This document shows, one piece after another, positions 14,459-46,238 of a stretch of DNA of 48,168 nt. Origin of the DNA: a bacterium. GTDB lineage: Bacteria; JACRDZ01; JAQUKH01. Where the stretch lies: contig JAQUKH010000021.1 in the NCBI GenBank assembly GCA_028719205.1, forward strand, positions 1-48,168, written 5' to 3'. The first letter of the stretch is position 1. Every line of letters begins with the position of its first letter. A program made the position numbers and the translations under genes. The notes under the pieces were generated by a model. That model saw only the letters and a list, made by a program, of their open reading frames with translations, had not been told where the DNA came from and ran no database searches.

Positions 14459-14905
14459 ATGAAAAATATAAATTCCCCCCGAATTCTAATGTTTTTATTC
14501 ATTTTCCCGCTTATAGCCGTTCCGAATATCAAGGCCGCGGAAAAACAAAAATTAGCTGTTGTAATCATTAAAAAAGATATCCAGCCGGTTAACATTAAAA
14601 TAAAATGTGAACGAAAAAACGATGATATGGGTAAATGCCTGTCATGCCATGAGAAAAATGGATGGAAAGATATGAAGTTTGTTCACGGGCCATTAGCTAT
14701 AAATGACTGCCGTCCGTGCCATATTAAACCGGACAAAGAAGTTTTAAAAAAAGCTGAGGTTGATTTCAGAAAAAATCCATGCAATTTTTGCCATCAGGAT
14801 TCTGAAATTAAAAACGCCCACCCTGAAACTTTAAAGAAGGAAAAACTTAACTGTCTGACCTGCCATAATCCGCACGCGTCAGATAAGGAATATTTTTTGA
14901 GATAG
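14459..14905 (+). CDS. exported tetraheme cytochrome c
   Basis: Signal peptide; CLSCH, CRPCH, CNFCH and CLTCHNPH; 'VHGP' distal-His motif. Confidence 0.85.
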   Translation: MKNINSPRILMFLFIFPLIAVPNIKAAEKQKLAVVIIKKDIQPVNIKIKCERKNDDMGKCLSCHEKNGWKDMKFVHGPLAINDCRPCHIKPDKEVLKKAEVDFRKNPCNFCHQDSEIKNAHPETLKKEKLNCLTCHNPHASDKEYFLR

Positions 14906-21338: not shown

Positions 21339-23189
21339 TTTTTGATTTTTCTTTAAATGAATCATTAAAACATCTATATCTGCCGGGGTAACACCGGTTA
21401 TTCTTGATGCTTGCCCAATTGATATTGGCCTGATTTTCATTAACAATTCCTTTGCCTCACGACAAAAACTTGTTATCTTGCTATAATCAAAATTGCCAGG
21501 AATTAATTTATTTTCCAATGTTTTAAATTTGTCAATTTGCCAAAGCTGTCTATTTATATATCCTTCGTATTTGATTTGAATTTCAACCTGATTTATTATA
21601 TCGGAATTATACTTGTCTAAGTTTATCGATTTTGGATCTATTTTCTCTAATATGTGTTTTAAGCTTACTTCCGGCCTTTTTAAATATTGTAATAATGTAA
21701 CATTTTCCGGTTTGTCAGTAATATTACATTTTTTTATATCAAACTTAAGCAGTTCCTCTTTGAATTTTGCTACATTTTTTAATTTTTTCTCGAATATTTT
21801 ATAGTTTTTTTCAGAAATTAACCCAAACTTGTAACCATATCCCATTAATCTCTGATCAGTATTATCAATCCTTAACACCAATCTATATTCAGCCCTGGAA
21901 GTAAACATTCTGTATGGTTCGGATATTCCCTTGGTGACCAGATCATCAATTAAAACCCCAATATATGCCTCCGACCTGTCTAATATAAAAGGTTTATCCT
22001 TTTTTATTTTTAAAACCGCGTTAATACCAGCCATTAATCCTTGAGCTGCCGCTTCTTCATATCCCGAGGTACCATTTATCTGACCGGCTAAAAAAAGCCC
22101 TTCAATTGATTTTGTCTCCAAATTTAATTTTATCTGGTCCGGATAAACAAAATCATATTCAATCGCGTATCCGGGCCTTATTATTTCAGCATTCTCCAAC
22201 CCATCTATTGTTCGCAGGAACTTAAGTTGAACATCATATGGCAGGCTTGTGGATATACCATTCGCATAGATCTCTGATGTTTCTCTGCCTTCCGGCTCAA
22301 GAAATATTTGATGCCGCTCCTTATCCCGGAATCTAACTACTTTATCCTCTATTGACGGGCAATATCTCGGCCCTATACCCTTTATCTTGCCTGAATAAAG
22401 AGGAGATCTTTTAAGGTTACTTAAGATTATTTTGTGTGTATTCTTATTTGTGTATGTCAAAAAACATGGGACCTGCGCCTGCGGCAATTTCTTTGTAAAA
22501 TAAGAAAATGGAACAGGAGGGATATCGCCATATTGAGGTATTGTCTTTGAGAAATCGATACTTTTACTGTCAAGCCTTGGATTAGTGCCTGTTTTCAATC
22601 TTCCTAATCTTAATCCTAACCTGCTTAAGCTTTGAGAAAGACCTACTGACGGAAACTCAACCATCCTCCCGGCAGGAAAAGATGTAAGGCCGATATGGAT
22701 CAATCCGTTCAAAAAGGTTCCTGTGCAGATAATAACGGTTTTAGACTTATATACAGTGCCTATATTAGTCCTCACACCTTTTATTTTTTTACCGGAAACC
22801 ATTATCTCCTCAACTATCCCTTGTTTTATATCTAACCCTTCCTGATTTTCCAGAATCCTTGTCATTTCCAGCCGGTATTCCAGTTTGTCGGACTGCGCGC
22901 GGGGAGATTGAACCGCCGGCCCTCTGCTTTTATTCAATATCTTAAACTGAATTCCTGTTTTATCAGTAACCTTAGCCATTTCACCGCCTAAAGCATCAAT
23001 TTCTTTGACTAAATGCCCTTTAGCTAAACCGCCTATTGCAGGATTGCAAGGCATCAACGCGATACTATCAATACTTATAGTTAAAAGAAGCGTTTTTATC
23101 CCCATTCTCGAGCATGCAAGCGCGGCTTCGCATCCAGCGTGGCCGGCACCCACAATAATACAATCATAATCTTTTGTATAATTATACAT
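21327..23189 (-). CDS. mnmG: tRNA uridine-5-carboxymethylaminomethyl modification enzyme MnmG/GidA
   Basis: 'VGAGHAGCEAA', 'CNPAIGG', 'GPRYCPSIEDK', 'AGQINGTSGYEEAA' and 'EPYRMFTSRAEYR'. The start is placed at ATG 23189. Confidence 0.96.
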   Translation of the reverse strand: MYNYTKDYDCIIVGAGHAGCEAALACSRMGIKTLLLTISIDSIALMPCNPAIGGLAKGHLVKEIDALGGEMAKVTDKTGIQFKILNKSRGPAVQSPRAQSDKLEYRLEMTRILENQEGLDIKQGIVEEIMVSGKKIKGVRTNIGTVYKSKTVIICTGTFLNGLIHIGLTSFPAGRMVEFPSVGLSQSLSRLGLRLGRLKTGTNPRLDSKSIDFSKTIPQYGDIPPVPFSYFTKKLPQAQVPCFLTYTNKNTHKIILSNLKRSPLYSGKIKGIGPRYCPSIEDKVVRFRDKERHQIFLEPEGRETSEIYANGISTSLPYDVQLKFLRTIDGLENAEIIRPGYAIEYDFVYPDQIKLNLETKSIEGLFLAGQINGTSGYEEAAAQGLMAGINAVLKIKKDKPFILDRSEAYIGVLIDDLVTKGISEPYRMFTSRAEYRLVLRIDNTDQRLMGYGYKFGLISEKNYKIFEKKLKNVAKFKEELLKFDIKKCNITDKPENVTLLQYLKRPEVSLKHILEKIDPKSINLDKYNSDIINQVEIQIKYEGYINRQLWQIDKFKTLENKLIPGNFDYSKITSFCREAKELLMKIRPISIGQASRITGVTPADIDVLMIHLKKNQKCST

Positions 23190-23239
23190 AAGATATAAGG
23201 ATATCAAATTGCGGGAAAAAATCAATCTTATTTTTTTTA

Positions 23240-23268
23240 TTGACTAGCAAAGTGTTCCATGTTACGAT
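23240..23268 (+). promoter_or_regulatory. sigma70 promoter for the 15-heme cytochrome
   Basis: TTGACT-17 nt-TACGAT with an extended -10 TG. Confidence 0.55.
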
Positions 23269-23298
23269 TTGGTCTTATAAATTTGAGTTTTCCGAACA

Positions 23299-25038
23299 AT
23301 GAAAAAGTTACATTTGTTTCCTCTTATTATTTTAGTTTTATATATTTTCTCTCTTTTATTATTCCCTGTAACTGCCGAAGAATACGGCGGAGGCGGAGTA
23401 TATGGAACGAAAAGTCCAGAGGATATACTTAATCAGATGAAAAAAGAAAAAGAGGAAACTTCAGACACGGAAAATCCGGTTGAAGATACAACCGGCAGTA
23501 AAGAAAATATTGTTACACAGGAAGAGCCCGAGGCTAAACCGAAACCTTTATTTGATGAAATACCCAATCCGCATCTTGGTATTAGCTGCGAAAACTGTCA
23601 CAAACAAAAACCTATACCAAGCTCGACGGAAAAAGAAATTTATACGTTTTCAAACACATTTGAATTTGATGAAATAAGTTTATGTGAAAGCTGCCATAAA
23701 AAAGTAAATCTCCACCCAACAGGGGTGAATCCAAAGAAACTGGAAAAACCTATGACAATTCCCGATATTTTTCCCACAGGGAAATATGGAAAATCAGCAG
23801 GCACCGTTGTCTGCTCGACTTGTCATGACCTCCATGTCAGTGTAGGTAATTTTCAAATGCTCAGAGGCTTCCAAAAAACTGCGTTTGATTTCGAACCTGT
23901 TTTTGAAAATCGCGAAACTTTTTGCAAAAGCTGCCATGGAGAAAAAATAATTTCTCAAAATCCTCATAAAGGGGATCATTCTCCATGCGGGTTCTGTCAT
24001 GCGAGCGACCCTAAGATAAGCAGTAATCCCAAGCAAACCCTTCGTCAGGACGCGGAAAATATCTGTTATTTCTGCCACAATAAAATAAATTCTAAACACT
24101 ATAGTGATGCAAACCCTTACCCGGAACTAAAAAAAGAACCGGTTTGCGAGACCTGCCATGATGTTCATGGTTATTCCAAAAAAGGATATTTTGTTACTTC
24201 GGAATATGAAAGTTTAGCGACAGAATCATTAAAAACAAACCCTCATTTAAAAAACGCGTTTTGCTTAACTTGCCATACGGAAGAACCTGTGAAAGGCATT
24301 CCAAATATCCGGTTCGGCGGCAATACGATTGAGACTTGTATGCGCTGTCATAGAGATGAATTTCCATGGAGAAGCGCGGATTTTCATCCGATCAATGTCT
24401 CAGCGGATGCGCCCGGAAAACATAAACCAAAAAATCTTTCTCTGTTTGACGGTAAAATCACATGCCTTACATGCCACTACGCGGACTGCCGGGTAGAAAA
24501 TAAAAAGGAAGTTAAAAAAACTAATAAAATATTTCTTCGCGGCGGGCCGTATCAGTACCGCAGCGATATCTGTTTTGAATGCCATGAACGCGACGCATAT
24601 GTAAAATATAATGTCCATGATCAAATTGATTCCAGGGGAATCATAAGAGAGGGTGTTTGTTTATATTGTCATCGCAATCAGCCCGATAGAAAAGTCAGGG
24701 CGCAAAAACAGGATTTTAAAAATCTTATTGCTCCAATGACCGATTTATGTGTGCGCTGCCATAGAGATAAAGTCCATCCCGGCCAGAAAGATCATATAAA
24801 ACATGCATCAGTTGATATGCAAAAAAGAAAAAGCGTTTACGAAATTGAACAAAATGTTTTTCTTCCGGTGGATGAAAAAGAAAATGTAACGTGCGCTACC
24901 TGCCACAATCCTCACGAAAAAGGGATCATTCCATGGGGGGCGGGAACAAAGGGCGCGGATGAACCGGCCAAACTTCGCTTAGTGAAAAAAGACGGATTAT
25001 TATGCCAGGTTTGTCATACGGGGCAAGGGCTGAAGTAA
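23299..25038 (+). CDS. exported 15-heme cytochrome c (paralog of 44118-45599)
   Basis: Signal peptide, acidic linker and 15 CxxCH motifs counted, with NPH/HP distal-His motifs. Confidence 0.9.
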   Translation: MKKLHLFPLIILVLYIFSLLLFPVTAEEYGGGGVYGTKSPEDILNQMKKEKEETSDTENPVEDTTGSKENIVTQEEPEAKPKPLFDEIPNPHLGISCENCHKQKPIPSSTEKEIYTFSNTFEFDEISLCESCHKKVNLHPTGVNPKKLEKPMTIPDIFPTGKYGKSAGTVVCSTCHDLHVSVGNFQMLRGFQKTAFDFEPVFENRETFCKSCHGEKIISQNPHKGDHSPCGFCHASDPKISSNPKQTLRQDAENICYFCHNKINSKHYSDANPYPELKKEPVCETCHDVHGYSKKGYFVTSEYESLATESLKTNPHLKNAFCLTCHTEEPVKGIPNIRFGGNTIETCMRCHRDEFPWRSADFHPINVSADAPGKHKPKNLSLFDGKITCLTCHYADCRVENKKEVKKTNKIFLRGGPYQYRSDICFECHERDAYVKYNVHDQIDSRGIIREGVCLYCHRNQPDRKVRAQKQDFKNLIAPMTDLCVRCHRDKVHPGQKDHIKHASVDMQKRKSVYEIEQNVFLPVDEKENVTCATCHNPHEKGIIPWGAGTKGADEPAKLRLVKKDGLLCQVCHTGQGLK

Positions 25039-25144
25039 GAGGGTAATTTAATTAAGCATTGACAATTGAAAATTTGGCCTTAAAATATCATTGTAATAAA
25101 AATTTTTGAATTGTTAAAATTTAACAAAGAAAGGAGTGAAGCTA

Positions 25145-25333
25145 ATGAGCATAGGAAAATTTTTACAGGTTATATGTGTTTGGGTACAGACAATATCTTA
25201 TACGCTAGGCGGGTATTTTTGTTTAAGGAGCGGTGGAATAATGGCAATAACAGGCGCATTTTTTATTTTTATTGGAGTTGTGCATGTAATAAAAATATTT
25301 AACGGCTCGATATTAAAATTTCAATCACACTAA
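25145..25333 (+). CDS. small membrane protein (62 aa)
   Basis: AAGGAG RBS before ATG 25145 and two hydrophobic stretches. TTGACA-16-TAAAAT lies at 25059-25086. Confidence 0.55.
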   Translation: MSIGKFLQVICVWVQTISYTLGGYFCLRSGGIMAITGAFFIFIGVVHVIKIFNGSILKFQSH

Positions 25334-25343
25334 TTTTTTCTCC

Positions 25344-25373
25344 TTGACACAAGAATTATTATTGTGTTAACAT
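25344..25373 (+). promoter_or_regulatory. candidate sigma70 promoter for the cytochrome c/b operon
   Basis: TTGACA-18 nt-TAACAT with TG extension. Confidence 0.45.
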
Positions 25374-25439
25374 CGTTGCTGTTTTAATTAATCTATGGGG
25401 GATATGCTTTTTATTTATTCCTAAAGAGGGGGTGAAATC

Positions 25440-26585
25440 TTGAACAAAAATTTTTTGATTAAAAACTTTTTTGTATTATTTGCTGTAACCTTCATTTGCA
25501 CTTTTATTATTAATGAACATTCAAGTTATGCCGTGGCTGACCCTGATAACTGCATGATGTGCCATGACCATCCTGGTATTGTACGCATGGACGAAAAAGG
25601 AATAAAAAGAGATTTCTATGTTGAAGAGGATATTTTTATTACCAGATCCGTTCATGGAAATGTCAGATGCGTAGACTGCCATGATTATATTATGGAAGGA
25701 AACGAACCAAAAATTCCTCATCAGCCTTTAATTAAAGAAAAGGTCCGCTGTAATTTAGTATGCCATAGTATAATTGAACCGTCCCGCGCCGATGATCCAA
25801 GCGATAAAAAATATTTTTCTCATGAAAATGCCTATGTTGCTTATAAAGAAAGCGCTCACGGTACTGCAGACAGAGAATTACCTCAGGATAAACAAGATCC
25901 TGACGCGCCTTATTGCACCTACTGCCATGACATAAACCCGATTTATGAAAAAGTCGGCGATGTAATACCAACAGTTAATGAGGCCCAGCTAAAAAGATGC
26001 CGTGGATGTCATAAGGATGATTTTTCCGCGAGATTTTATCGCCACACAAAACATCGTTTTGACATGAAGACCAATAGAACCAAAAACCAGGTTGTCGAGC
26101 TTTGTGTTGAGTGCCATGGAAATGACGATATGATGAAAAGGCACAAACTCAGCGCGGCACCGGTTAAGGAATATAAAACTACATTCCATTATAAAATGGT
26201 TTATCACGGCGGAGAAAGATGGGCAGGCTGCACGGATTGTCATACCAAAGCTAATTATCCAATGGATCCAAATCGCCCATCAGGCGGAGATGCAGGGATA
26301 CATGAATTATTAAGCAAAAAGAATCCGAAATCAGCAGTATTTATTACAGAAGAAAGTCGTCTTAATAAAGAAAAAGATAATTTGGTAAAAACATGCAGTG
26401 TTGATGTCTGCCATCCAAAAGCTAAAGAGTCCAAATCATTTGCGCGTTCAGTCGGACATATTGCGCCGCATAATTTTATCGGGCTGTTTCTTCTGGAAGA
26501 AACCTTTTTCTGGCTTTGCTATGGAGTATTAGCTTTTGTTATTGCACTTATTACAATGGACTTAGTACGAAAAATATTAGGATAA
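25440..26585 (+). CDS. membrane-anchored multiheme cytochrome c (6 CxxCH + CxxxCH + CxxxxCH), CbcL N-domain-like
   Basis: Signal peptide; CMMCH, CVDCH, CNLVCH, CTYCH, CRGCH, CVECH, CTDCH and CSVDVCH; C-terminal TM helix. Confidence 0.88.
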   Translation: MNKNFLIKNFFVLFAVTFICTFIINEHSSYAVADPDNCMMCHDHPGIVRMDEKGIKRDFYVEEDIFITRSVHGNVRCVDCHDYIMEGNEPKIPHQPLIKEKVRCNLVCHSIIEPSRADDPSDKKYFSHENAYVAYKESAHGTADRELPQDKQDPDAPYCTYCHDINPIYEKVGDVIPTVNEAQLKRCRGCHKDDFSARFYRHTKHRFDMKTNRTKNQVVELCVECHGNDDMMKRHKLSAAPVKEYKTTFHYKMVYHGGERWAGCTDCHTKANYPMDPNRPSGGDAGIHELLSKKNPKSAVFITEESRLNKEKDNLVKTCSVDVCHPKAKESKSFARSVGHIAPHNFIGLFLLEETFFWLCYGVLAFVIALITMDLVRKILG

Positions 26586-26603
26586 TTTTATTTAGAAAGG
26601 AGC

Positions 26604-27377
26604 GTGAAGCTTATGGAACATGCTGAGCATAAAAGTTCTGTTGAACCAAGAATATTTGAGAGGCTAAGTACACACCAAATAATTCAGCATCTCATTCTAG
26701 TTATTGCTTTTACCTTGCTTGTCGCAACCGGTATGCCTCAAAAATTTCCGCACATGCCGTATGCCAAACCTTTGTTTAAACTTCTTGGGGGGCCGGAAAT
26801 TGCTCCTGTAATTCATAGGATATGCGGAATACTATCCTGGATACTTTTAATTTACCATTCTATTTATTTGATCAGCCGATGGATAATTGAAGGCTGGAAC
26901 CCGTTTAATAATTTTTTCTCGAGATTAAAAACAGGGGACCTGGCACTAATTCCATCCGCTAAAGATGGAAAAGATATCGTTGATAAAATTAAATATTATC
27001 TTGGGATAAACAAAGAACCGCCGGCATTGAAAAAATGGGCCTATCCTGAAAAATTTGATTATCTTGCCGTATATTGGGGTATGGTTATGATCGGGCTTAC
27101 TGGCCTTAGTTTGTTTTTAAGAGAGTTCGTCATGTCTTTTATGCCTTGGTGGTGGATGACTGCCGCCCTTATTGTTCATAGTGATGAGGCGTTTTTGGCA
27201 ACTGTTTTTATATTTACATTCCATTTTTACAATGTTCATTTTATTCCTGAAAATTTCCCGATGATCAAATCGTGGATTACCGGGAAAATGACTGAAGAAG
27301 AGGTAATTCATGAACATAAAATGTGGTATGATGAAATGATGGCAAAAGAAAAAGGGGAAGAGGGGGGTAAAAAATAA
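26604..27377 (+). CDS. di-heme cytochrome b (FdnI/HydC/CbcL-type) membrane subunit
   Basis: Four TM helices with His ligands 'IQH', 'IHR', 'VHSDEAFLA' and 'FHFYNVH'; also 'EKFDYLAVYWG'. Confidence 0.9.
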   Translation: MKLMEHAEHKSSVEPRIFERLSTHQIIQHLILVIAFTLLVATGMPQKFPHMPYAKPLFKLLGGPEIAPVIHRICGILSWILLIYHSIYLISRWIIEGWNPFNNFFSRLKTGDLALIPSAKDGKDIVDKIKYYLGINKEPPALKKWAYPEKFDYLAVYWGMVMIGLTGLSLFLREFVMSFMPWWWMTAALIVHSDEAFLATVFIFTFHFYNVHFIPENFPMIKSWITGKMTEEEVIHEHKMWYDEMMAKEKGEEGGKK

Positions 27378-28189
27378 TGCTAAAACGTAATTTAATAATA
27401 AGTGCGGCTGTGGCTATGGTTTCTGTCGTAGCATTAGCCTTTGTTGCGCCTGTTAAATCCGGAGAAGAGCACAACCCGTTAACCGATAGGATTGTAGTTA
27501 ATGAAAAGGAATCGAGAGTATTTCATTTTCACAATAAAAATGAGGGTGATGCTGCGTCTTTTGATGATCAAAATCCTCTCATTTGTATCATTTGCCATGG
27601 CAAAATGCCGCATGCTAAAAATAAAATCACAAGGGCAATGCTTAATTTTCACGCCCCATTCATAGACTGCAATACCTGTCATGTAAAGGATGTAAAAGGA
27701 GGTATTAGCGGCTATAGATGGTTTGATGGAACCTCATTCAGCATAGCTAAGTTAAAAAAGGGGACAAGAAAAGTTGACCCATTAATAAGGATAAAACCCT
27801 ATGTCAACCAGCTTATCTCTGCCTTTGATGAAGAAATCACAGGAAGGGACAATGTCCCTTTAATTACACCATACGTTATAGAGAATGGCCGTTTTAAAAT
27901 GATAACTATGCGGATGGATAATGCAAAATTCGCAAAAGCGCTTGCCATGAGAGACAGGTTGCCATCTGATATACAGGGCCAGATGAAAGGACAAATACAT
28001 CAAGCGGTTTCAAACCCCGGATTAGATTGTACGGATTGTCACCGTGTCAAAAGTGTATTGCCGTTTAAGGCCCTTGGATATTCCGAAGAGCGCACGGATC
28101 AAATAGTCGGAACCGAGGCTGCGGGAATTATCGGACGATATGGCAGATTTTTTATGCCTGTCCTCTTTGGAACTAAAAAAGGCAGTTAA
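27377..28189 (+). CDS. exported/anchored triheme cytochrome c
   Basis: N-terminal hydrophobic segment; CIICH, CNTCH and CTDCH. It is translationally coupled to the cytochrome b. Confidence 0.85.
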   Translation: MLKRNLIISAAVAMVSVVALAFVAPVKSGEEHNPLTDRIVVNEKESRVFHFHNKNEGDAASFDDQNPLICIICHGKMPHAKNKITRAMLNFHAPFIDCNTCHVKDVKGGISGYRWFDGTSFSIAKLKKGTRKVDPLIRIKPYVNQLISAFDEEITGRDNVPLITPYVIENGRFKMITMRMDNAKFAKALAMRDRLPSDIQGQMKGQIHQAVSNPGLDCTDCHRVKSVLPFKALGYSEERTDQIVGTEAAGIIGRYGRFFMPVLFGTKKGS

Positions 28190-28224
28190 AAGCTAATTAT
28201 TATTTTTTATATTTAATAACTTTC

Positions 28225-28263
28225 ATAGGGGGGCGGAGGAATATTCTTAGCCCCCTTATTTTT
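28225..28263 (+). terminator. hairpin with T-run between the triheme and NHL genes
   Basis: ATAGGGGGGC...GCCCCCTTAT followed by TTTT. Confidence 0.45.
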
Positions 28264-28267
28264 CAGT

Positions 28268-29200
28268 ATGATTATATTTAATAAAAAATTTATATTTATT
28301 TTTTTTATAACTCTTCTTTTCAAGAATTACTGCGCATTCGGAGAAGAAATTCCGGTAAAAGCCACTCTTCTTTTCGAAATAAAAGGTCCTGCAGCTTCAC
28401 CTTTAAACCAGCCAAGTGATATAGCTATTGGGCCAAACGGCAACTTATATATACTGGATGGGGTAAATAACAGGGTGGTCGTAACTACCAAAAAAGGCGA
28501 ATTCATTAAAGAATTTGGTAAAAAAGGCGACCAATCAGGTGAATTATTATATCCTTTGGGTATTACCACTGATACTGATGGAAAAGTATATATAGCCGAT
28601 TCAGGAAATCATAGAATTACAATATTTGACGCTGATGGAAATTTCCAAAATCAATTTGCTATAAAACCTGGTGAAGAAAAAGTTCCGGCGGATCCGACTG
28701 ACATTATTGTTGTTAAAGATAAATGTTTTATTGTAGATAATGATAACCATAGAGTTGTAGTGTATAACAAAAAAGGTGATTTTATAAGAGAGTGGGGCAA
28801 CAATGGCAGAAGAAAAGGGGAATTCAGATTTCCTTTTATGCTGGCAAGCGACAGTAAAGGTGAAATTTATATAGTTGATGTTATTAACGCTCGAGTACAG
28901 GCATTTGATCAGGATGGAAATTATTTGCGGCAAATAGGCCTTTGGGGAATAAAAAAAGGAACTTTTTATCGCCCGAAAGGCATTACTATAGATAAACAAG
29001 ATAGAATATTTGTAAGTGATAGTTTCCTTGGGGTCATTCAGGTATTCAATAGGGATGGCGAACTCATTTCTTTAATCAACAATGAATTGAATAATCGTAG
29101 AACTTTTATTACACCTGTTGGAATTTTAGTCGATGACGCTAACCATCTCTATGTGGTTGAAATGATCGCCAACCTGATTGAAGTCTTTAATCTACAATAA
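28268..29200 (+). CDS. exported NHL-repeat six-bladed beta-propeller protein
   Basis: Repeats 'PSDIAI..GNLYILDGVNNRV', 'PLGITTD..GKVYIADSGNHRI' and 'PKGITID..RIFVSD'. Signal peptide present. Confidence 0.9.
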   Translation: MIIFNKKFIFIFFITLLFKNYCAFGEEIPVKATLLFEIKGPAASPLNQPSDIAIGPNGNLYILDGVNNRVVVTTKKGEFIKEFGKKGDQSGELLYPLGITTDTDGKVYIADSGNHRITIFDADGNFQNQFAIKPGEEKVPADPTDIIVVKDKCFIVDNDNHRVVVYNKKGDFIREWGNNGRRKGEFRFPFMLASDSKGEIYIVDVINARVQAFDQDGNYLRQIGLWGIKKGTFYRPKGITIDKQDRIFVSDSFLGVIQVFNRDGELISLINNELNNRRTFITPVGILVDDANHLYVVEMIANLIEVFNLQ

Positions 29201-29214
29201 TTATTATTAAATTA

Positions 29215-32200
29215 ATGAAACGTCTTTTCTTCTTTTCTCAGATAATATTTTGTTTGTTTTTTATCCAAAGATACGCATTGGCTAGAAGTGTTATGCCCGG
29301 AAGCTCCAAGCAGGAATGCGCTGTCTGCCATTATGAATGGCATCCTGATCACTCAATAAAAGATAATCCTGACCGCATACCGCGCTATATCGGACATAAA
29401 CGCTATGTAACAGATGAATGGATATGTTACAGCTGTCATGACGGTTCAATGGTTGATTCCCGCGCCAAAGTCTGGAAAAAAAAGATAACCCATCCGACAA
29501 AGATAGTTCCCTCTAAAAAAGTAAATATTTCAGAAAAATATCCTTTATACTTTATGAATAATTTCGCTTATAAAGATGATTCTGACAAATTTTATGGTGA
29601 ATTAGACTGTGGAAGCTGTCATACAGCACACGCGGTAGGTTCTCAGGATGGTTCGGTGCCGGAAAGGGCTACTTATCTCAGGGAAGCAAACGAGAACTCA
29701 GAGATGTGCATGGATTGCCATAAAGATAAGTCTAATGGAACAAAAGAAGGAATGCATCCTATAAATGTTGAGTCAATCGTTTTTCCAAAAGAATTAAAAG
29801 AATCCGGGGCATATAGCGGAGATAAAGCTAATAAGGTAATTTGTGAAAGCTGCCATAAAATCCATTCCGCGGAAGCAGACAATCTTTTATTGCTTCCGGT
29901 AAAGGGCCCGGATGTTAAATCCTCGGAGCTTTGTGAAGCCTGCCATACAAATAATCCAAGCAAGAAAGAAGGTCCCGGGCATGATACCCATCCGGTAGAT
30001 GTTCCTCAAACAAAAGCATCAATCCCTTATCGATGGCATTCAGGAAAACCGTCTAACACAGGTAAAAATAATAGCTTAATTTGTGTTTCCTGCCATTCAC
30101 CGCATTACGCGGCAAAAGAAACACATCTTTTAGCTGATAACAACAAAAAATCTTCTTTTTGTGAAATATGCCATATCGACAAGCTTAACAAAGGCACAGG
30201 TGAAAAAAATACGGGGACTCACCCGGTAGATGTTCAATTGACCGGTGAAATGCACCCTATGGGTTTGCAATTCGGGCCTGACAGCACAGTCATCTGCGAA
30301 AGCTGCCACAAGGTCCACAATGCCGCGGACAATGCGGCAAATGATGGAACGGACGGTAAAATTATGGCTGTTTCTAATAAAAATTCCGCTTTGTGCCTTG
30401 AATGCCATGAAACAAAATATGCTAATGGGATACAAGATGGCGAACAAAAAGGAACACATCCGATTAATGTAATTCCTTCAGAAGCAGTTATTTCCCCATC
30501 CCTATTGGGGCTAGGCGCAAGAAAGGGCGTAGACGAAAAGTTAGTCTGCGAAAGCTGCCATAAGATCCATGATTCCGCGCCAAAAACAAAAAACCTCCTG
30601 GCGGATAATAAATTCTCCGGATTATGCAACACCTGCCATCAAAACAAAATAATCCGCGGGATCCGTGATTCTATAGCTTCAATAAAACATCCCGTAAACA
30701 TCATTTCTGATAAGGTAAAAATCGCCGAGGATATTATAAAAGCAGGCGGCAATTTTGGCCCAAACAAGGAGATGATATGCACTACATGCCATCTTCCCCA
30801 TAAGGGTGTTAAAAATACCCCGCTTTTAGTCGCGGTCAATAATCAGTCTTCTATTTGCCTGGACTGTCATAAAGATAAAAAGTCCGTAATTTATTCCGAC
30901 CATAACCTGGCAATTACAGCCCCTGATGAACCAAACATCAGAAATCAAACAGCCGCGCAATCAGGAGTTTGCGCGCCATGCCATTTCTCTCACGGATGGG
31001 CTAAAAAACTTTCGGGTGAAGGCGATTTCGTTACACAGCTTTGCGTAAGTTGTCATAATAAAGATGGTTCCGCGAAGAATAAACCAATTGATAAATATTC
31101 TCATCCGACAGATAAGTCAATAAAAAAAGCTGATGGCACATCTTCTATGCCATTATTTGACGAAATGGGTAAACAAAAACCGGAGGGGAATGTCCTCTGC
31201 ACAAGCTGCCATGACCCGCATGTATGGGATCCAAAGAAGCTGGATACAACTTTTAACAAAAACAGGGAAGGTGATTTTACTAATAGTTTCCTGCGTAAAC
31301 CAAACAATGCCAAATCTGAATTTTGTAAAGATTGCCATGAGGATAAATTCTTTGTTGAAAATACTGAACATGACATGTCGGTAACTGCGCCTAACGCAAA
31401 AAATATCGAAGGGAAAACGAGTTCTGAAGGAGGAATTTGCAGCGCCTGCCATTTGGTGCATAATGGAAAAGAGCGTAAAATATGGGCCAGAGAGGTTTCG
31501 CAGATCGGAAAAGATACTTCCGCCAATCTTTGTTTCAGCTGTCATTCTGAAAAAAATCCAGGCGAGGCTAAAAAAATTGTAACCTTTACGCATCCAACCT
31601 CAGTATCCATTCTAGGCGCGGACGGAAATTCTACGTTGCCGTTATTTAATAATAAGGGTGAACTTTTAGAAAATGGCAGTGTTTATTGTAATACATGCCA
31701 TGATCCGCATACATGGGATCCGTCTAAAAAGAAAGTATCCTCCCGTAAAAATACAGAAGGGAATCAGACTAATAGTTTTTTAAGGATATCCAACTTTCCG
31801 TCACCTGATTTGTGTAAAGATTGTCATGGAAAGAAAGTTTTAGTTGAAGGAACAGATCATGACCTTGCGAATACCGCGCCTAAAGTCAAAAACTTTGAAG
31901 ATAATACCCGGAAAACAGGCGGACTCTGCAGTCCATGCCATGTAGTCCATAATGGATTAGGGCCAAGAATGTGGTCAAGGGAAATAAGTGGTGACGCTGA
32001 CTTTTCCTCAAAATTCTGTTTTTCCTGCCATGCGGACGGCAAATGCGCGGAAAAGAAGCAACTTGGTAAATTTTCACACCCGGTCGATGTCTCCATTTCA
32101 AAGGCTGGAGGGATAACAACTCTGCCTACGTTCAATAAAGAAGCACAAAAACAGGAAGGCGGCAATGTCTACTGCTATTCCTGTCATGATCCGCATATCT

Positions 32201-33378
32201 GGGATCCTAAAAAGAATACAAAGGGTGAGGCTAAAGAAAATATAGAAGGAACGGCTTTAAACAGTTTCCTGAGGCTTCCTTCCGACCCGGAGGCAACTCT
32301 TTGCAGGGACTGCCATGGCGCTCAAGGCCTTATTGTAGAAACAGATCATGATCTGAAAGTTTCCGCGCCGAAAGAAAAAAATATGCTGGGTCAAACTGTT
32401 TTTGAATCCGGACCTTGCGGGGCTTGCCATGTACCTCATAATGCTGTTGCGGAAAAATTATGGGCGAAACAAAAAGGTAAAGGAACCGATAGCATCTCTC
32501 CTTTGTGTGAAAGTTGCCATGGTAAAAACGGATGCGGAAATACTAAACAAATCGGTGAAACGCATCCTGTAGGCGTAGATTTCAGCCGGCTTGGATTTAA
32601 AGGAGAACCCCCGTTTCCGATATTTACCTTGCAAGGCGCTAAAGATATGGAAACCGGTAAAGTGCTTTGTTCTACCTGCCACAATCTTCATCAATGGGAC
32701 CCTGACAAAAAAGAACATGGCCCCGGTATAAAAGTTGAAGGAGATATTACAAACAGTTTTTTACGAAAAAACAATAAAAATTCTGATATGTGTACGGGCT
32801 GTCATTTAAATAAAAAATATGTTGTTCGTACGGAACATGATATGAGAATAACAGCGCCTTCTGAAAAAAATGTAATCAACCAGACGGCTGAAGAGGGCGG
32901 CCCATGCAGCGCATGTCATATTCCCCATAACGCGTTCGGTAAATTGTTAATATGGGCTAAATTGCCGCAGGCAAGCCTGGAAACACCTTCTATGCTGTGC
33001 AAAAGCTGTCACGCGCCAAAACAGTGCGCGGAAAACAAAGTTCCTGTTGTTGATATGCACCCTGCCGATATTGTAGTTACAAATATCGGCAGACGGAATG
33101 ACCGTGAACCCGGCTCACTTCCGATGTTTAATAAAGATGACGGCCTTAGGGCAAAACACGGAATTGTGTCCTGCGGATCGTGCCACAACCCGCATCAATG
33201 GGAGGCAGGAAACCCAAATAACGCGCCGGGAGAAAATACCGAAGGAACAGCGTCTAACAGCTTTTTGCGCCAGAAAGATTTTACCATATGCGCGGACTGC
33301 CACCGTTTTGACGCACTTTTCCGTTATAAATATTATCACATCCCAAGGATACGGGAAATTGGAAGGGGATTAGAATAG
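29215..33378 (+). CDS. giant exported 34-heme cytochrome c: six diheme repeats plus five tandem tetraheme modules
   Basis: Signal peptide (…ALA) and 34 CxxCH motifs counted. The repeating unit is HD(L/M)...CxxCHxxH...W...CxxCH...HP...CxxCHxxHxW...EG...NSFLR...CxxCH. Confidence 0.92.
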   Translation: MKRLFFFSQIIFCLFFIQRYALARSVMPGSSKQECAVCHYEWHPDHSIKDNPDRIPRYIGHKRYVTDEWICYSCHDGSMVDSRAKVWKKKITHPTKIVPSKKVNISEKYPLYFMNNFAYKDDSDKFYGELDCGSCHTAHAVGSQDGSVPERATYLREANENSEMCMDCHKDKSNGTKEGMHPINVESIVFPKELKESGAYSGDKANKVICESCHKIHSAEADNLLLLPVKGPDVKSSELCEACHTNNPSKKEGPGHDTHPVDVPQTKASIPYRWHSGKPSNTGKNNSLICVSCHSPHYAAKETHLLADNNKKSSFCEICHIDKLNKGTGEKNTGTHPVDVQLTGEMHPMGLQFGPDSTVICESCHKVHNAADNAANDGTDGKIMAVSNKNSALCLECHETKYANGIQDGEQKGTHPINVIPSEAVISPSLLGLGARKGVDEKLVCESCHKIHDSAPKTKNLLADNKFSGLCNTCHQNKIIRGIRDSIASIKHPVNIISDKVKIAEDIIKAGGNFGPNKEMICTTCHLPHKGVKNTPLLVAVNNQSSICLDCHKDKKSVIYSDHNLAITAPDEPNIRNQTAAQSGVCAPCHFSHGWAKKLSGEGDFVTQLCVSCHNKDGSAKNKPIDKYSHPTDKSIKKADGTSSMPLFDEMGKQKPEGNVLCTSCHDPHVWDPKKLDTTFNKNREGDFTNSFLRKPNNAKSEFCKDCHEDKFFVENTEHDMSVTAPNAKNIEGKTSSEGGICSACHLVHNGKERKIWAREVSQIGKDTSANLCFSCHSEKNPGEAKKIVTFTHPTSVSILGADGNSTLPLFNNKGELLENGSVYCNTCHDPHTWDPSKKKVSSRKNTEGNQTNSFLRISNFPSPDLCKDCHGKKVLVEGTDHDLANTAPKVKNFEDNTRKTGGLCSPCHVVHNGLGPRMWSREISGDADFSSKFCFSCHADGKCAEKKQLGKFSHPVDVSISKAGGITTLPTFNKEAQKQEGGNVYCYSCHDPHIWDPKKNTKGEAKENIEGTALNSFLRLPSDPEATLCRDCHGAQGLIVETDHDLKVSAPKEKNMLGQTVFESGPCGACHVPHNAVAEKLWAKQKGKGTDSISPLCESCHGKNGCGNTKQIGETHPVGVDFSRLGFKGEPPFPIFTLQGAKDMETGKVLCSTCHNLHQWDPDKKEHGPGIKVEGDITNSFLRKNNKNSDMCTGCHLNKKYVVRTEHDMRITAPSEKNVINQTAEEGGPCSACHIPHNAFGKLLIWAKLPQASLETPSMLCKSCHAPKQCAENKVPVVDMHPADIVVTNIGRRNDREPGSLPMFNKDDGLRAKHGIVSCGSCHNPHQWEAGNPNNAPGENTEGTASNSFLRQKDFTICADCHRFDALFRYKYYHIPRIREIGRGLE

Positions 33379-33389
33379 GAGGTAAATAT

Positions 33390-33551
33390 ATGTTATTAGT
33401 TGGTTTAAAAAATATTATAATACTGCTTATTATTTTAGTTGTCAGTTATATTATTTTTCTATTTCTTCCAGCTTCTTTGACTGATTTAAAAATAGATAAA
33501 AAAACAGAAAAAAAGTTAGAAGAAGAGTTAAAAGAAAATTTAAAAGAATAA
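33390..33551 (+). CDS. small single-TM protein with charged tail (53 aa; not in ORF track)
   Basis: AGGAGG RBS overlaps the giant cytochrome stop. Sequence: MLLVGLKNIIILLIILVVSYIIFLFLPASLTDLKIDKKTEKKLEEELKENLKE. Confidence 0.7.
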   Translation: MLLVGLKNIIILLIILVVSYIIFLFLPASLTDLKIDKKTEKKLEEELKENLKE

Positions 33552-33556
33552 AATTA

Positions 33557-34087
33557 TCACTCTATCTCAAGACATTTCTTACATTCCGCTTCAGACATGC
33601 TTTTTTTACAAAGATCAAGTAATTCTTTTATAGGTATCTTTCCTTTTAAACTTTTAAATATTTCGCAATTTACATTAACAGTATTTTTTGATTTGCCAAT
33701 AGAGTCATTATTAAACTGTGTTCCGCACGACCACTCAACAGATTTAATTTTAGCATCTAATATTTTAAGTTTGGCTTCTAATATTTTCAGCTTTTCTTCG
33801 TGATTTTTTCTTAATAATTCACAATCTAAACGTAAACTTTGCCCATTATCCCATGTCGGAGAAGCCACATCCGGATTTTCAAGGCACTTTTTTAATTCAT
33901 CGTTTTTAGATTCTAATTCTTCACGGGCGGATTCCGCCTCTTCAGCGGCTTTAGAAGCGTCACTAACGGCTTTCCCTAACTTATCCAGATCTTCAACACA
34001 ACCACCCAATTCTTCTTCCAGGCAGACAGCGGATGCGGTAATTATAAATAAAATTACAAAGATATTTTGAAGTGTTTTTTTTAACAT
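33557..34087 (-). CDS. hypothetical exported Cys-rich coiled-coil protein
   Basis: Signal peptide, heptad-like helices and scattered Cys. No CxxCH. Confidence 0.65.
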   Translation of the reverse strand: MLKKTLQNIFVILFIITASAVCLEEELGGCVEDLDKLGKAVSDASKAAEEAESAREELESKNDELKKCLENPDVASPTWDNGQSLRLDCELLRKNHEEKLKILEAKLKILDAKIKSVEWSCGTQFNNDSIGKSKNTVNVNCEIFKSLKGKIPIKELLDLCKKSMSEAECKKCLEIE

Positions 34088-34169
34088 ATTTTTTTATTTA
34101 TTTTACTAATTATATTTTTCATTATATAACTAATTTTTAACACGTCAATTACTTTATTTTTTTACGATC

Positions 34170-35264
34170 CTAATCTTTTTTCACCTGTCCCTGCTCCACC
34201 TTAAACCATTCGCCGCTTTTACTTTTAATCTTTGACTTATCAACCTCGGTTATAAATATCTGAATATCTTTTGGTAAGGCATTAAAGATATTCTCGATCC
34301 TTTTGTTGTCTAATTCCGAAAACAACTCATCAAATAAAACTATAGGGTACTCCCCGGATTCCTCAAAAACAAAATATATTTCCGCTAAATTTAACGCCAG
34401 TAAAATACTTTTTATCTGCCCCTGCGAGGCAAAACTTTTAACCTCTTTTCCGTTCATAAAAAAAGAAATTTCATCCCGGTGCGGCCCATACAATGAAAAT
34501 CCTTTTTTAATCTCCTCATTTCTTGTTTTTAAGGTCATTTTCTTCCAGATATCTATTATTTTATTTTTATCAGATAAAACATCGTTTATTATAAATGTTT
34601 TATAAACCATATCTATTTCTTCGTGTGATATTATATTTTTATAAATACTTTTCATTAAGCTGTTTATCTTCTTTACCACCATATCTCTTTTTATTATTAA
34701 TTCAGCGCCATATTCGATCAATTGCTGGTCCCATGAATCCAATATATCCATGTTTTTCGTTCTTTCCTGTAGTATGATATTTTTCTGAATTAAAATTTTA
34801 TTATATTGTTTAAGATTGTGAAAATATTGAGGGTTGATCTGGGATATTTGAAAGTTCAGGTAACTGCGCCTGTGAGAAGGCATACCTTTTATAATATTAT
34901 AATTTTCAGGGGTAAAAATAACGGCTGGAAATCTATTACCAAGATAATCAGGGTTTGTCTGGATCTTATTATTAATTCTTAATCTTTTTCCTTTTCCTTT
35001 TTCTCCAACAACCTCTATTACCTGATTCTTATCTTTTATTATTAATAAACCTTTTATATAAAAAAAATCAGACCTAAAACTGATCATATCCTCATAATAA
35101 TTAGTTTTTAAAGATCTAAATGTTAAAAGTAAATATATTGCCTCAATTAAATTACTTTTCCCTTGGCTATTCTCTCCAATAATAAAACTTAAACCTTTCC
35201 CGAATTCTATATTAACTTTACCTAAATTACGAAAACTGTTTAAAATAATATTTTTTAAATACAT
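34170..35264 (-). CDS. recF: DNA replication and repair protein RecF
   Basis: 'GENSQGKSNLIEAI', 'GPHRDE', 'ASQGQ' and 'LFDELFSELD'. Follows dnaN. Confidence 0.93.
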   Translation of the reverse strand: MYLKNIILNSFRNLGKVNIEFGKGLSFIIGENSQGKSNLIEAIYLLLTFRSLKTNYYEDMISFRSDFFYIKGLLIIKDKNQVIEVVGEKGKGKRLRINNKIQTNPDYLGNRFPAVIFTPENYNIIKGMPSHRRSYLNFQISQINPQYFHNLKQYNKILIQKNIILQERTKNMDILDSWDQQLIEYGAELIIKRDMVVKKINSLMKSIYKNIISHEEIDMVYKTFIINDVLSDKNKIIDIWKKMTLKTRNEEIKKGFSLYGPHRDEISFFMNGKEVKSFASQGQIKSILLALNLAEIYFVFEESGEYPIVLFDELFSELDNKRIENIFNALPKDIQIFITEVDKSKIKSKSGEWFKVEQGQVKKD

Positions 35265-44104: not shown

Positions 44105-44117
44105 TTAGGATATAGAA

Positions 44118-45599
44118 ATGTTTAATTTAATGAAAAAAAACAAAAATTATATTATTCTATCAATAACGATATCATTATTGATAGGGCATACCGTATTTTC
44201 CGCTTCGGCAAATGAAACTAAAGCCATAGAGGAATTTGCGAGGAAAAAAGGCAGGCCGAATCCGCATAACGAAATAGAATGTATTGATTGCCATAAAACT
44301 AAACCGGGCAAGGAAGAGACAAGAGATAATGTAACATTTAAAACAGCTATAGATGAACTTTGTGTAGAATGCCATGGGGCAGAGAGCAATATTCATCCTA
44401 CGGGAGTAATTCCTTCTATGAAAATTCCAGCTCATCTTCCTTTAAGCAAAGAAAAAAAGGTTAATTGTGTTACCTGCCATGATATGCACGCTAAAGATAC
44501 TAAATTCAGTTTACTTCGGGGATTTGAAGAAGGCAAATATAAGTGGCGGACGGATATGTGTTATGACTGCCATGGAATGGAATTCCTTAAGAAAAATCCG
44601 CATCGTATTATGGAAGGGAAGCGCAAATGTAATTATTGTCATGCCACTGAGCCCAAGGTAAGTGATACTGAAAAGACGGTAGGATTTAGAATTAGTGTTC
44701 TGACGTTATGTAATTTTTGCCATAATGTCGCGGCAAAAAATCATCCTATGAATGTGGATACTACCATATCTCCCCCGGCAAGCCTTCCGCGTGACGCCGA
44801 TGGGAATATGACTTGCGCGACTTGTCATGATCCGCATGGGGCCTCGGCAACCGCGCATTTTTTAAGGCCGGAATATATTTACACTCTGGAAGAGGGAAGA
44901 TATATTAAACCCCATTTTGATGATAGCCAATGTTTAGTTTGTCATATTACTATGCCAAAGGAAGGTGCTACCCCGGACGAGGTTGATTATAGGTTTGGAG
45001 GCAATTTCACGCTTCTTTGCAACAGCTGTCACGGGACAGAAGCTAATATGCATCCTGTAGATATTTTGCCTCCGCCGGAGATGAAGATTGATCCGATCCT
45101 CCCTCTTCGAAATGGCAAAATCACCTGTCAGTCATGCCATAACGCAGGATTTGTAAGCAGGTCCAGCCTTTACTTACTTCGGGGATTTGAAGAAGGCGGG
45201 AAAAATAAGGAAATTAATGATCTGTGTTTTATGTGCCACGATAAAGAGGAATTTAAAAAATTGAATCCTCATTTTGAAATGAAGGCAAAACGGAAATGCA
45301 TGTATTGTCATATTACCCCGCCGGATACCGGAGATAAAAATGATGAAGAGAGCGATAAGGGTATTAAGGGAGGAAAGATTAAGATGCTTTGTATCAGGTG
45401 CCATTCTCACAGGCCGCATCCGGCATCGTTTTCCCATGTTGTAAAACCAACAATGATCGTACCAAAAGGATTTCCTCTGGATACAAACGGAGAGATTACA
45501 TGCTCTTCCTGCCATGACCCTCATTTTGAAGGTGAAAAGGCTTCAAAAACTAAGAGGCTTCGGAAAGGGTTTGCCTGTAATTTGTGCCATCTAGTTTAA
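44118..45599 (+). CDS. exported 15-heme cytochrome c (paralog of 23299-25038)
   Basis: Signal peptide and 15 CxxCH motifs counted. Confidence 0.9.
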   Translation: MFNLMKKNKNYIILSITISLLIGHTVFSASANETKAIEEFARKKGRPNPHNEIECIDCHKTKPGKEETRDNVTFKTAIDELCVECHGAESNIHPTGVIPSMKIPAHLPLSKEKKVNCVTCHDMHAKDTKFSLLRGFEEGKYKWRTDMCYDCHGMEFLKKNPHRIMEGKRKCNYCHATEPKVSDTEKTVGFRISVLTLCNFCHNVAAKNHPMNVDTTISPPASLPRDADGNMTCATCHDPHGASATAHFLRPEYIYTLEEGRYIKPHFDDSQCLVCHITMPKEGATPDEVDYRFGGNFTLLCNSCHGTEANMHPVDILPPPEMKIDPILPLRNGKITCQSCHNAGFVSRSSLYLLRGFEEGGKNKEINDLCFMCHDKEEFKKLNPHFEMKAKRKCMYCHITPPDTGDKNDEESDKGIKGGKIKMLCIRCHSHRPHPASFSHVVKPTMIVPKGFPLDTNGEITCSSCHDPHFEGEKASKTKRLRKGFACNLCHLV

Positions 45600-46229: not shown

Positions 46230-46238
46230 GACAAATAC

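Follow-up and report, generated by a model that had tools for sequence, protein, structure and literature searches.

The stretch of DNA considered here (the window) is the 48,168-nucleotide contig JAQUKH010000021.1 (C21) of assembly GCA_028719205.1, which belongs to a genome of 2.59 Mb in 68 contigs (37.6% G+C, 92.7% complete) referred to below as G000. The candidate phylum is sampled by six genomes, of which G001 and G002 are sister genomes in the same genus. The window is the neighbourhood of the replication origin and contains a cluster of multihaem cytochrome c genes (23299-33378, + strand), with mnmG, rsmG and the gene for a RarA-type ATPase to its left and recF, dnaN, dnaA, rnpA, yidC and mnmE to its right. 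In order, and all in the same orientation, the cluster encodes a 15-haem cytochrome (A15), a small protein with two transmembrane (TM) helices, an eight-motif cytochrome (B8), a cytochrome b (Cb), a trihaem cytochrome (D3), an NHL propeller (NHL) and a 34-haem cytochrome (F34). The genes from B8 to F34 are tightly packed, with intergenic gaps of -1 to 78 bp, the start of D3 overlapping the stop of Cb by one base. The cytochromes of the cluster have 58 canonical CXXCH motifs and two atypical ones; the observed counts are 3-34 per protein, compared with means of 0.01-0.21 and maxima of 1-3 in 2000 shuffles of each protein. An initial annotation of this DNA had described just such a co-oriented cluster, with 60 haem c motifs and no catalytic subunit. 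The genes were all found on the + strand at the coordinates then given and the motif count is the same; profile scans of the 22 window proteins also found no molybdopterin, NiFe or flavin subunit in the cluster. G000 as a whole has 44 open reading frames (ORFs) with at least three CXXCH motifs, amounting to 429 motifs.

Three of the genes appear to specify the parts of a membrane complex. Cb (26604-27377, +; 257 residues) is a four-helix dihaem cytochrome b of the FdnI/Ni_hydr_CYTB type, and contains the stretch HSDEAFLA. It is matched by PF01292 over residues 25-209 (E 4.6e-8; 33.5 bits, cut-off 30.1) and by TIGR01583, the formate dehydrogenase gamma subunit, with E 1.4e-14 and 54.6 bits, which is under the equivalog cut-off of 115.85. 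Hydropathy gives four TM helices, and His29, His71, His192 and His207 are invariant in 19 homologues, with a single one in each of TM1 and TM2 and a pair in TM4; this distribution is typical of dihaem cytochromes of the FdnI type, the likeness being one of placement. Cb is probably the site of the quinol/quinone reaction. G000 makes menaquinone via the futalosine route, MqnA and MqnD being present. B8 (25440-26585, +; 381 residues) is a periplasmic cytochrome c with a signal peptide, six CXXCH motifs, one CX3CH, one CX4CH and a C-terminal TM helix (residues 355-373); at least six CXXCH motifs plus the CX3CH are retained in 20 of 20 homologues, and the second atypical motif in 14 of them. D3 (27377-28189, +; 270 residues) is a trihaem cytochrome c (three CXXCH) with an uncleaved N-terminal membrane anchor. 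The three CXXCH motifs, H79, N90 and H92 are invariant in an alignment of 110 members, and H52 nearly so. The D3 family, for which there is no Pfam name, has 581 representatives at E<=1e-3, and 103 at E<=1e-30, among 1.84 billion proteins. The model of D3 has a predicted local distance difference test (pLDDT) value of 76.5, with a confident N-terminal helix (residues 2-23). Compared with solved structures, this model gave nothing at E<=0.001 with Foldseek, the best VIA-align row being 1sp3_A (Z 5.5, root-mean-square deviation 3.7, 116 residues), and single-sequence searches of the PDB with Cb, B8 and F34 returned nothing meaningful and no relative of Cb.

It is natural gene fusions that supply a map of the subunits. 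B8 is fused to Cb in G004 (of the same phylum), G225 and G060, Cb to D3 in G357, and all three to one another in G225 and G060; B8-D3 fusions occur on contig C12 of G000 and in G219. Fused versions of the same cytochrome b carry 11-19 haems in other genomes. Two high-G+C genomes of family f58 each have a split copy and a triple-fused B8-Cb-D3 copy side by side. Hydropathy of the fusions places one helix after the B8 haems, four in Cb and one before the D3 haems, which fits a 1+4+1 topology. The N-terminal helix of D3 thus persists as an internal TM helix in Cb-D3 and B8-Cb-D3 fusions and, because it is kept before the D3 haems, the N-terminal stretch is considered to be a real anchor rather than a cleaved signal. 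B8, Cb and D3 are accordingly predicted to be subunits of one membrane complex, to which B8 would contribute eight c-haems and one helix, Cb two b-haems and four helices, and D3 three c-haems and one helix. In the predicted complex, which would have six helices and 13 haems in all, a cytochrome b of the FdnI type bears two multihaem arms on its periplasmic side. A complex prediction of Cb with D3 returned no answer (score 0.00, mark 0.32). A Sedimenticola metagenome-assembled genome (MAG) has a NapH-type polyferredoxin membrane domain fused to a B8 homologue in place of Cb (L030 7576-9810), so that the membrane module seems interchangeable between two kinds of quinol-interacting proteins.

NHL (28268-29200, +; 310 residues) is an exported six-bladed beta-propeller, matched over its whole length by PF01436 (E 1.2e-28) and by the six-bladed propeller family DUF5128 (E 9e-20). 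F34 (29215-33378, +; 1387 residues) is an exported single-chain cytochrome with 34 CXXCH motifs. Its N-terminal half consists of about seven dihaem units and its C-terminal half of five tandem tetrahaem repeats of ~163 residues, mutually 35-44% identical; Paired_CXXCH_1 matches it in 10 stretches and cytochrome c7 in five. The 76 histidines of F34 are sufficient for bis-His ligation throughout. Its orthologues have 18-38 haems. The repeat profile gives a weak match to OmcE-type filament subunits (9yuq, E 1.2e-4; 7tfs, E 1.2e-3), which is counted as a lead only because it is confined to stretches of 25-35 residues around the haem motifs. The NHL gene lies directly upstream of the large cytochrome gene in 19 of 19 loci that have the conserved core described below, it adjoins an F34-like gene in the variant locus of G219, and in the Sedimenticola MAG (L030 10561-13788) NHL is fused to a large cytochrome of 18 haems. 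This constant adjacency and the fusion suggest that NHL and the large cytochrome form a physical unit, NHL probably being the docking partner of F34. A NosD-like right-handed beta-helix lipoprotein adjoins F34-type genes in three unrelated loci (L037 859-1770, L027 9519-10565 and L079 3158-4192). The first of these is part of a mini-cluster on contig C12 of G000 (L037 859-12307), in which the lipoprotein is followed by a seven-haem protein of 509 residues, a natural fusion of B8-like and D3-like parts via a two-helix hairpin, and then by a 37-haem paralogue of F34 (2526 residues, 37% identity); the mini-cluster has no cytochrome b or NHL gene.

The remaining large protein, A15 (23299-25038, +; 579 residues), is an exported cytochrome c with 15 CXXCH motifs and an acidic low-complexity linker after its signal peptide. 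It is matched by Paired_CXXCH_1, cytochrome c7 and MtrC/MtrF domain II/IV profiles, and has orthologues in the equivalent position in G001, G002, G003 and G005 (33-78% identity). Its C-terminal half (residues 339-579) matches the second heptahaem cytochrome of the barrel-linked clusters to which we return below (28% identity, E 6e-20). A paralogue of A15 (34% identity) is the 15-haem protein of a cytochrome island that occupies the whole of contig C42 in G000 (L036 1-17417) and encodes 14-, 5-, 8-, 14-, 15-, 14- and 10-haem proteins. The island further holds genes for two NHL propellers, a tetratricopeptide repeat (TPR) lipoprotein and a haem-free protein of 419 residues; the last was considered as a barrel and rejected, being a thioredoxin-like plus TPR protein.

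A check on the conservation of the cluster had been proposed in the initial annotation. The complete series A15-B8-Cb-D3-NHL-F34 recurs, with its order unchanged, in the two sister genomes (68-90% identity) and in another family of the phylum (33-52%), and D3 is present in all six genomes of the phylum. Beyond it, the scans comprised a search with Cb (found in 15 of 41 genomes), a search with the D3 alignment over a species collection (eight loci) and a survey of 401 broadly sampled genomes, 20 of which have D3 at E<=1e-8. A core of B8, Cb, D3, NHL and a large cytochrome, in this order, was found in 19 loci from at least eight families (G000, G001, G002, G003, G005, L027, G024, L029, L031, L032, G306, G193, G152, G344, G357, G288, G133, G225 and G060). 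A scan of metagenome contigs with the D3 alignment gave one locus of 1666 bases, too short for context. The proposal that genes of this kind are an evolutionary remnant, kept without a working pathway, has been made for the cluster of Deferribacter desulfuricans, and it could be said in its favour that the outer-membrane barrel module considered below is unlinked in the phylum studied here. We regard it as highly improbable for the present cluster: none of the seven conserved genes is broken, the haem motifs and the four b-haem histidines are retained without exception in the three genomes studied from the genus and throughout the phylum, at the identities given above, the gene spacing is tight, and the paralogous expansions on C12 and C42 argue for active use.

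The genes that accompany the core elsewhere encode NosD-like beta-helix lipoproteins, a PpiC isomerase, a BamB-like propeller, TPR proteins, ResB/CcsA and, in one family, rhodanese-domain proteins; in G288, an MtrC/MtrF-like 10-haem lipoprotein is encoded directly upstream of B8. These accessory genes are of the extracellular electron transfer kind. No catalytic subunit was found among 41 neighbouring proteins scanned in the homologous loci, which make up part of the flanking genes. A rival reading is that the cluster is a dedicated pathway for insoluble or polymeric sulfur (S0, polysulfide) and not for metals, with electrons passing to or from elemental sulfur at the surface. The rhodanese-domain proteins flank the cluster in the two f58 genomes (L087 14512-15450 and L088 3684-5510), and the carriers that are named or published metabolize sulfur: a Desulfurobacteriaceae MAG and the Sedimenticola MAG carry the cluster, and Desulfurobacterium and Thermovibrio, which are also carriers, reduce S0 according to Shi et al. 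(2014; PMC4245776). Such rhodanese neighbours are found in only two of the 11 loci L079-L089, where 16 selected proteins from seven loci were scanned. No sulfur gene lies in or beside the cluster, and the G000 genome has no DsrA above the cut-off (nor any match to COX1 or another haem-copper oxidase, and only a marginal one to NrfA). Fe(III)-reducing species of Deferribacter carry a cluster of the same layout (PMC13186404). A pathway dedicated to such sulfur compounds is considered unlikely.

The homologous loci of the Aquificota type open with the gene for a haem-free exported protein of ~420 residues, followed by two heptahaem cytochrome genes and then by the core. The ~420-residue protein, a putative beta-barrel, has no Pfam or NCBIfam family. 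By eye, it has a signal peptide and an aromatic C-terminus; the ESM Atlas model of the G024 protein has a pTM of 0.75 and lies closest (score 0.98) to a cluster that bears the automatic name 'Beta-barrel porin 2 family protein', and the nearest clusters with a Pfam assignment are outer-membrane barrels. An AlphaFold2 model of the barrel from within the phylum, made from a two-sequence alignment, had a pLDDT of 28 and was unusable. The homologue in G000 is cut by contig ends, at C8:3-920 (-) and C22:2-559 (+). Within the barrel gene the two ends share an overlap of 99% identity, which indicates that C8 and C22 are neighbouring contigs and that the assembly is broken within this gene. Downstream of it are genes for a five-haem cytochrome, a four-haem cytochrome with a lipobox and a small lipoprotein, and the module is intact in G001 and G003. 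A query with the G024 protein alone gave no match in five genomes of the phylum, and matches were obtained with the G000 fragment. The two barrel groups can be aligned from end to end (362 columns; hhalign probability 89%, E 2.3e-6), and an iterative hidden Markov model (HMM), applied to every locus and to each ORF of G000, produced a clean barrel family with exactly one G000 member. A Sedimenticola protein of 436 residues at the barrel position did not join this family, and an iterative HMM seeded with the first heptahaem was discarded after drifting into generic multihaem matches.

The absence of an MtrB-like porin, claimed in the initial annotation, thus holds in part: there is none in the window, and the MtrB/PioB family (PF11854) has no match in the whole G000 genome (92.7% complete), but a putative Pcc-type barrel is encoded at C8/C22. 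The search for porins and secretion systems that had been suggested at the same time returned this barrel, together with three secretins. A cytochrome cluster that seems to lack a porin may, in other words, have the gene for its barrel in another part of the genome. Seven of the 19 core loci contain a member of the barrel family, as does the variant locus of G219, and in G020 a member adjoins a fused 19-haem-Cb gene. The family is present in 9 of the 20 genomes with D3, from 5 of 13 families, as against 35 of the 381 others (odds ratio 8.1, Fisher p 7e-5, the genomes being partly kin and so not independent). Matches to it also occur elsewhere in G006, G014 and G028; these genomes, and G037, have a different type of cluster (L015, L017, L018 and L019, from G006, G028, G037 and G014, respectively), in which two or three tandem B8-like/Cb-like pairs precede the gene for a 16-17-haem protein and both D3 and NHL are lacking.

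On balance, and with somewhat better than even confidence, we consider the cluster to encode those components of an envelope-spanning multihaem pathway, linked to quinone, that lie in the inner membrane and the periplasm; the substrates with which it exchanges electrons would lie outside the cytoplasmic membrane, most likely at or beyond the outer one. Cb would oxidize menaquinol or reduce menaquinone, and electrons would pass from its b-haems to B8 and D3, and from there to the exported A15 and to the NHL-docked F34. A15 may hand them on to the Pcc-type barrel and the five-haem and four-haem lipoproteins of C8/C22; this step is proposed on the resemblance of the C-terminal half of A15 to a periplasmic heptahaem of the barrel-linked clusters. 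F34, which if extended would measure a few tens of nanometres (an estimate based on haem spacings), could bridge the periplasm or extend from the surface. Which way the electrons run cannot be read from the sequence. The outward direction is favoured, to insoluble acceptors (for example Fe(III), Mn(IV) or S0, or else a partner cell); with inward flow, Cb could act as one arm of a proton-motive redox loop, as FdnI does in formate dehydrogenase-N. Homologous clusters have genes for outer-membrane barrels and lipoprotein cytochromes as neighbours, and once a gene for an MtrC/MtrF-like decahaem, which favours a membrane-to-surface conduit. Also in favour are the enrichment of the barrel in D3 genomes, the kind of accessory genes that accompany the core, and the lack in G000 of a DsrA above the cut-off, of COX1 and of more than a marginal NrfA match, set against its 44 ORFs with at least three CXXCH motifs.

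Several observations sit uneasily with this reading. The quinol activity of Cb rests on family resemblance, and the TIGR01583 score is under its cut-off. The signal peptides of A15, NHL and F34 are of the ordinary kind, without a lipobox, so that nothing in their sequences places them outside the periplasm. No barrel lies within the window, and the suggested link between the cluster and the C8/C22 barrel is drawn from synteny in other lineages and not from G000 itself. This barrel family is missing, at E<=1e-8, from 11 of the 20 D3 genomes and from 8 of 13 families, which implies that the core can persist without it; G344 (99% complete) has evidently lost the barrel, though its relatives G024 and G193 have one. 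In addition, some published carriers are not known to reduce solid Fe(III), for example D. desulfuricans (PMC6896113), and Desulfurobacterium and Thermovibrio are described as sulfur reducers (PMC4245776).

Some of the same facts would be expected of a system confined to the periplasm, in which the B8-Cb-D3 complex serves the quinone pool and the NHL-docked F34, with A15, is a static periplasmic wire or an electron store (a capacitor) that buffers electrons or distributes them to periplasmic reductases, with no crossing of the outer membrane. Plain Sec signal peptides without lipoboxes and the persistence of the core where no barrel is found both accord with this. F34 is built of c7-like and paired-CXXCH units, and PMC10138318 discusses polymers of this sort in Geobacter, made of several c7 domains, as nanowires that store electrons in the periplasm; in G000, two loci for NiFe hydrogenases and four matches to molybdopterin oxidoreductases could provide periplasmic partners. 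No periplasmic reductase gene is linked to any locus examined, however, the core is repeatedly linked to an outer-membrane barrel, lipoprotein cytochromes and the MtrC/MtrF-like decahaem, and the barrel is enriched in D3 genomes. Propeller-plus-multihaem pairs of D. ferrophilus, whose likeness to NHL and F34 is one of description, were found in the extracellular protein fraction (Table 2 of PMC8322314). Confinement to the periplasm is consequently judged rather unlikely, though a live rival to the conduit.

A broader proposal can be put forward tentatively, as possible but short of probable. B8-Cb-D3 may represent a distinct, widespread and unnamed class of inner-membrane quinol:multihaem oxidoreductase, with six helices, two b-haems and eleven c-haems, to be set beside CymA, ImcH, CbcL and CbcBA. 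It would have two periplasmic exits, one through A15 or a heptahaem to a Pcc-type conduit, and the other through a propeller-docked wire of 18-38 haems that spans the periplasm or projects from the cell. If this is correct, the wire would be a covalent counterpart of the polymerized cytochrome nanowires, and one operon would wire the quinone pool over tens of nanometres without filament assembly. The inner-membrane link from the quinone pool to outer-membrane conduits is poorly known outside Geobacter and Shewanella, and genome surveys for extracellular electron transfer lean on few marker families; the module, which recurs in at least eight families including cultured thermophiles and of which D3 represents a family of several hundred sequence clusters, is a candidate for such a link.

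The window contains a number of minor features. Between A15 and B8 is the small ORF for a two-helix membrane protein of 65 residues (25136-25333, +), which opens with GTG at 25136 and for which ATG at 25145, after AGGAG, is the likely start. It is genus-specific: an open frame of equal length (63% identity) is found in both sister genomes, and no match was seen in the four other loci searched (G003, G005, L027 and G024). After F34 comes an ORF of 53 residues with a single TM helix (33390-33551, +), preceded by a well-spaced GAGG; it is doubtful because it has no counterpart even in the sister genomes G001 and G002. The spacer between A15 and B8 (25039-25439, 400 bp) is 76% identical in the sister genomes, and the two-helix ORF lies in it between two strong sigma-70-like consensus sites. 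These are TTGACA-16-TAAAAT (25059-25086, +; 11 of 12 positions) and, upstream of B8, TTGACA-18-TAACAT with TG (25344-25373, +; 10 of 12); a third promoter-like site, TTGACT-17-TACGAT with an extended TG, lies upstream of A15 (23240-23268, +). All three are tentative consensus matches and are treated as leads only, since the 40 promoter-like sites of the region do not stand out from the shuffle background (33.0 +/- 5.6); the same holds for terminator-like sites. An Rfam scan of 22800-34200 gave nothing credible, with one sub-threshold row (E 0.055). Elsewhere in the window there is a lone gene for a tetrahaem cytochrome c of 148 residues (14459-14905, +) and, past mnmE, a second cytochrome group (42017-46805, +), which encodes a TPR protein of 695 residues, a 15-haem cytochrome (44118-45599), a membrane protein of 189 residues (45660-46229) and a four-haem cytochrome (46239-46805).

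The system had been called undescribed, and this needs to be amended, because parts of it are in print, as the Pcc clusters of Aquificota (PMC4245776) and as a 19-gene cluster of Deferribacter (PMC6896113, PMC13186404), none of them characterized in these papers. Shi et al. (2014) describe Pcc clusters, of their phylogenetic group III, in Desulfurobacterium thermolithotrophum and Thermovibrio ammonificans, with an associated cytoplasmic-membrane cytochrome (Dester_0351/Theam_0871) that has six typical and two atypical motifs (PMC4245776). The Aquificota-type loci G024, G193, L029, L031 and L032, the last of which is labelled Desulfurobacteriaceae, have the barrel, two heptahaems and a B8 homologue with 6+2 motifs, as that paper describes. 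B8 of the window is 27-30% identical to B8 homologues of the Aquificota type, and the barrel family of G000 is homologous. The available text of PMC4245776 covers the triad and the eight-motif cytochrome, which it credits with a likeness to cytochrome b, and has no separate Cb, D3, NHL or 21-28-haem protein. In G000, by contrast, the barrel triad is on other contigs, one 15-haem protein replaces the two heptahaems and the wire has 34 haems; a porin gene beside multihaem genes, the mark of a Pcc cluster, is lacking within the window and is found at C8/C22. The Deferribacter '19-gene multihaem cytochrome cluster' is reportedly that of Takaki et al. (2010). It comprises DEFDS_0741-0760 or FHQ18_02900-02990, with 10-haem and 28-haem cytochromes and, in third position, a gene annotated 'formate dehydrogenase / cytochrome b561' (PMC6896113, PMC13186404). 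In the part of PMC6896113 consulted, its function is called unresolved, and it is noted to occur in D. desulfuricans, which does not reduce iron. G288 and G133 share this layout, namely a 10-haem MtrC/MtrF-like protein, B8, Cb, D3, NHL, a 28-haem cytochrome, a TPR protein, two cytochromes of eight and seven haems, the barrel and a small cytochrome, the comparison being one of layout only. The cluster of G000 is shorter, has no decahaem or linked barrel, and belongs to a different phylum. The same papers, in their available text, take Cb for a formate dehydrogenase and propose no B8-Cb-D3 complex (PMC6896113, PMC13186404). That label is unsupported here, given the TIGR01583 score of 54.6 against 115.85 and the absence of a molybdopterin or Fe-S subunit from the cluster. 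Two printed annotations are corrected here: the cytochrome b as a 'formate dehydrogenase', and the likeness to cytochrome b that was credited to the eight-motif cytochrome.

Propellers are paired with multihaem cytochromes in other systems. Examples are DFE_0448-0451 of D. ferrophilus (PMC8322314) and UetH/UetI of the Uet system (bioRxiv 10.1101/2022.05.06.490989; PMC10734462), and omcE nanowire clusters encode two beta-propeller lipoproteins and a large barrel (PMC13712944). The likeness, as far as these sources describe it, is that a gene for an NHL or six-bladed propeller adjoins large multihaem genes, the propellers being compared by description. In the parts of these sources available, there is no cytochrome b, B8 or D3 beside the propeller, and the wires are polymers of small subunits or proteins of 11-14 haems, in contrast to the single 34-haem chain found here. 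The Oet system was set aside, OetI being a porin conduit for which the accessible part of PMC10553843 mentions neither a cytochrome b nor a propeller.

For the membrane complex, the closest precedents are in Geobacter and in formate dehydrogenase-N. In the latter, from E. coli, the membrane part consists of FdnI, a four-helix dihaem cytochrome b, and the C-terminal helix of FdnH. Cb resembles FdnI in its four helices, in the distribution of histidines over TM1, TM2 and TM4, and in receiving an extra helix from a periplasmic electron-transfer subunit; it differs in that its periplasmic partner is a multihaem cytochrome and not an iron-sulfur protein with a molybdoenzyme. CbcBA (GSU0593-0594), an inner-membrane quinol oxidoreductase of G. 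sulfurreducens, combines a four-helix dihaem b subunit with a multihaem c subunit that is a protein of its own and is held in the membrane by a C-terminal helix. It is required for the reduction of low-potential Fe(III) and electrodes; its authors point out that many uncharacterized b-plus-multihaem gene pairs exist (bioRxiv 10.1101/2021.04.15.440034). Judged by this description, Cb with its four helices and B8 with its separate chain and C-terminal anchor are of the same design. CbcL (GSU0274), likewise a quinol oxidoreductase of the inner membrane, is a single polypeptide in which an N-terminal multihaem c domain is joined to a b-type domain of six helices, whereas B8, Cb and D3 are separate genes in G000; its likeness, again by description (PMC6295460), is to the fused relatives elsewhere with about six helices. 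The 'split CbcL-like quinol module' of the initial annotation is therefore right in that B8 and Cb have a split multihaem-plus-b design with fused relatives, but the CbcBA layout is closer, and the place of D3 as a third subunit of the membrane complex was overlooked. Neither CbcBA nor CbcL, as described in the available text, has a counterpart of D3, and B8 has eight motifs compared with seven in CbcA and nine in CbcL; no sigma-54 activator was found among the 22 window proteins scanned, so that a regulator of the BccR type that accompanies CbcBA is not adjacent to the G000 cluster. Since CbcB and CbcL are themselves described as non-homologous to each other, likeness of design does not show membership of either group, and it is as analogues that the two-gene layout of CbcBA and the FdnH/FdnI anchor arrangement appear closer than CbcL. 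The literature search, which did not cover supplementary tables, returned partial descriptions only and none of the B8-Cb-D3 complex, the D3 family or the five-gene core. In relation to these systems, the new elements are the map of subunits, the wide occurrence of the core module, and the form that it takes in this phylum, where the barrel is not linked to it, a single 15-haem protein replaces the two heptahaems, and the wire has 34 haems.

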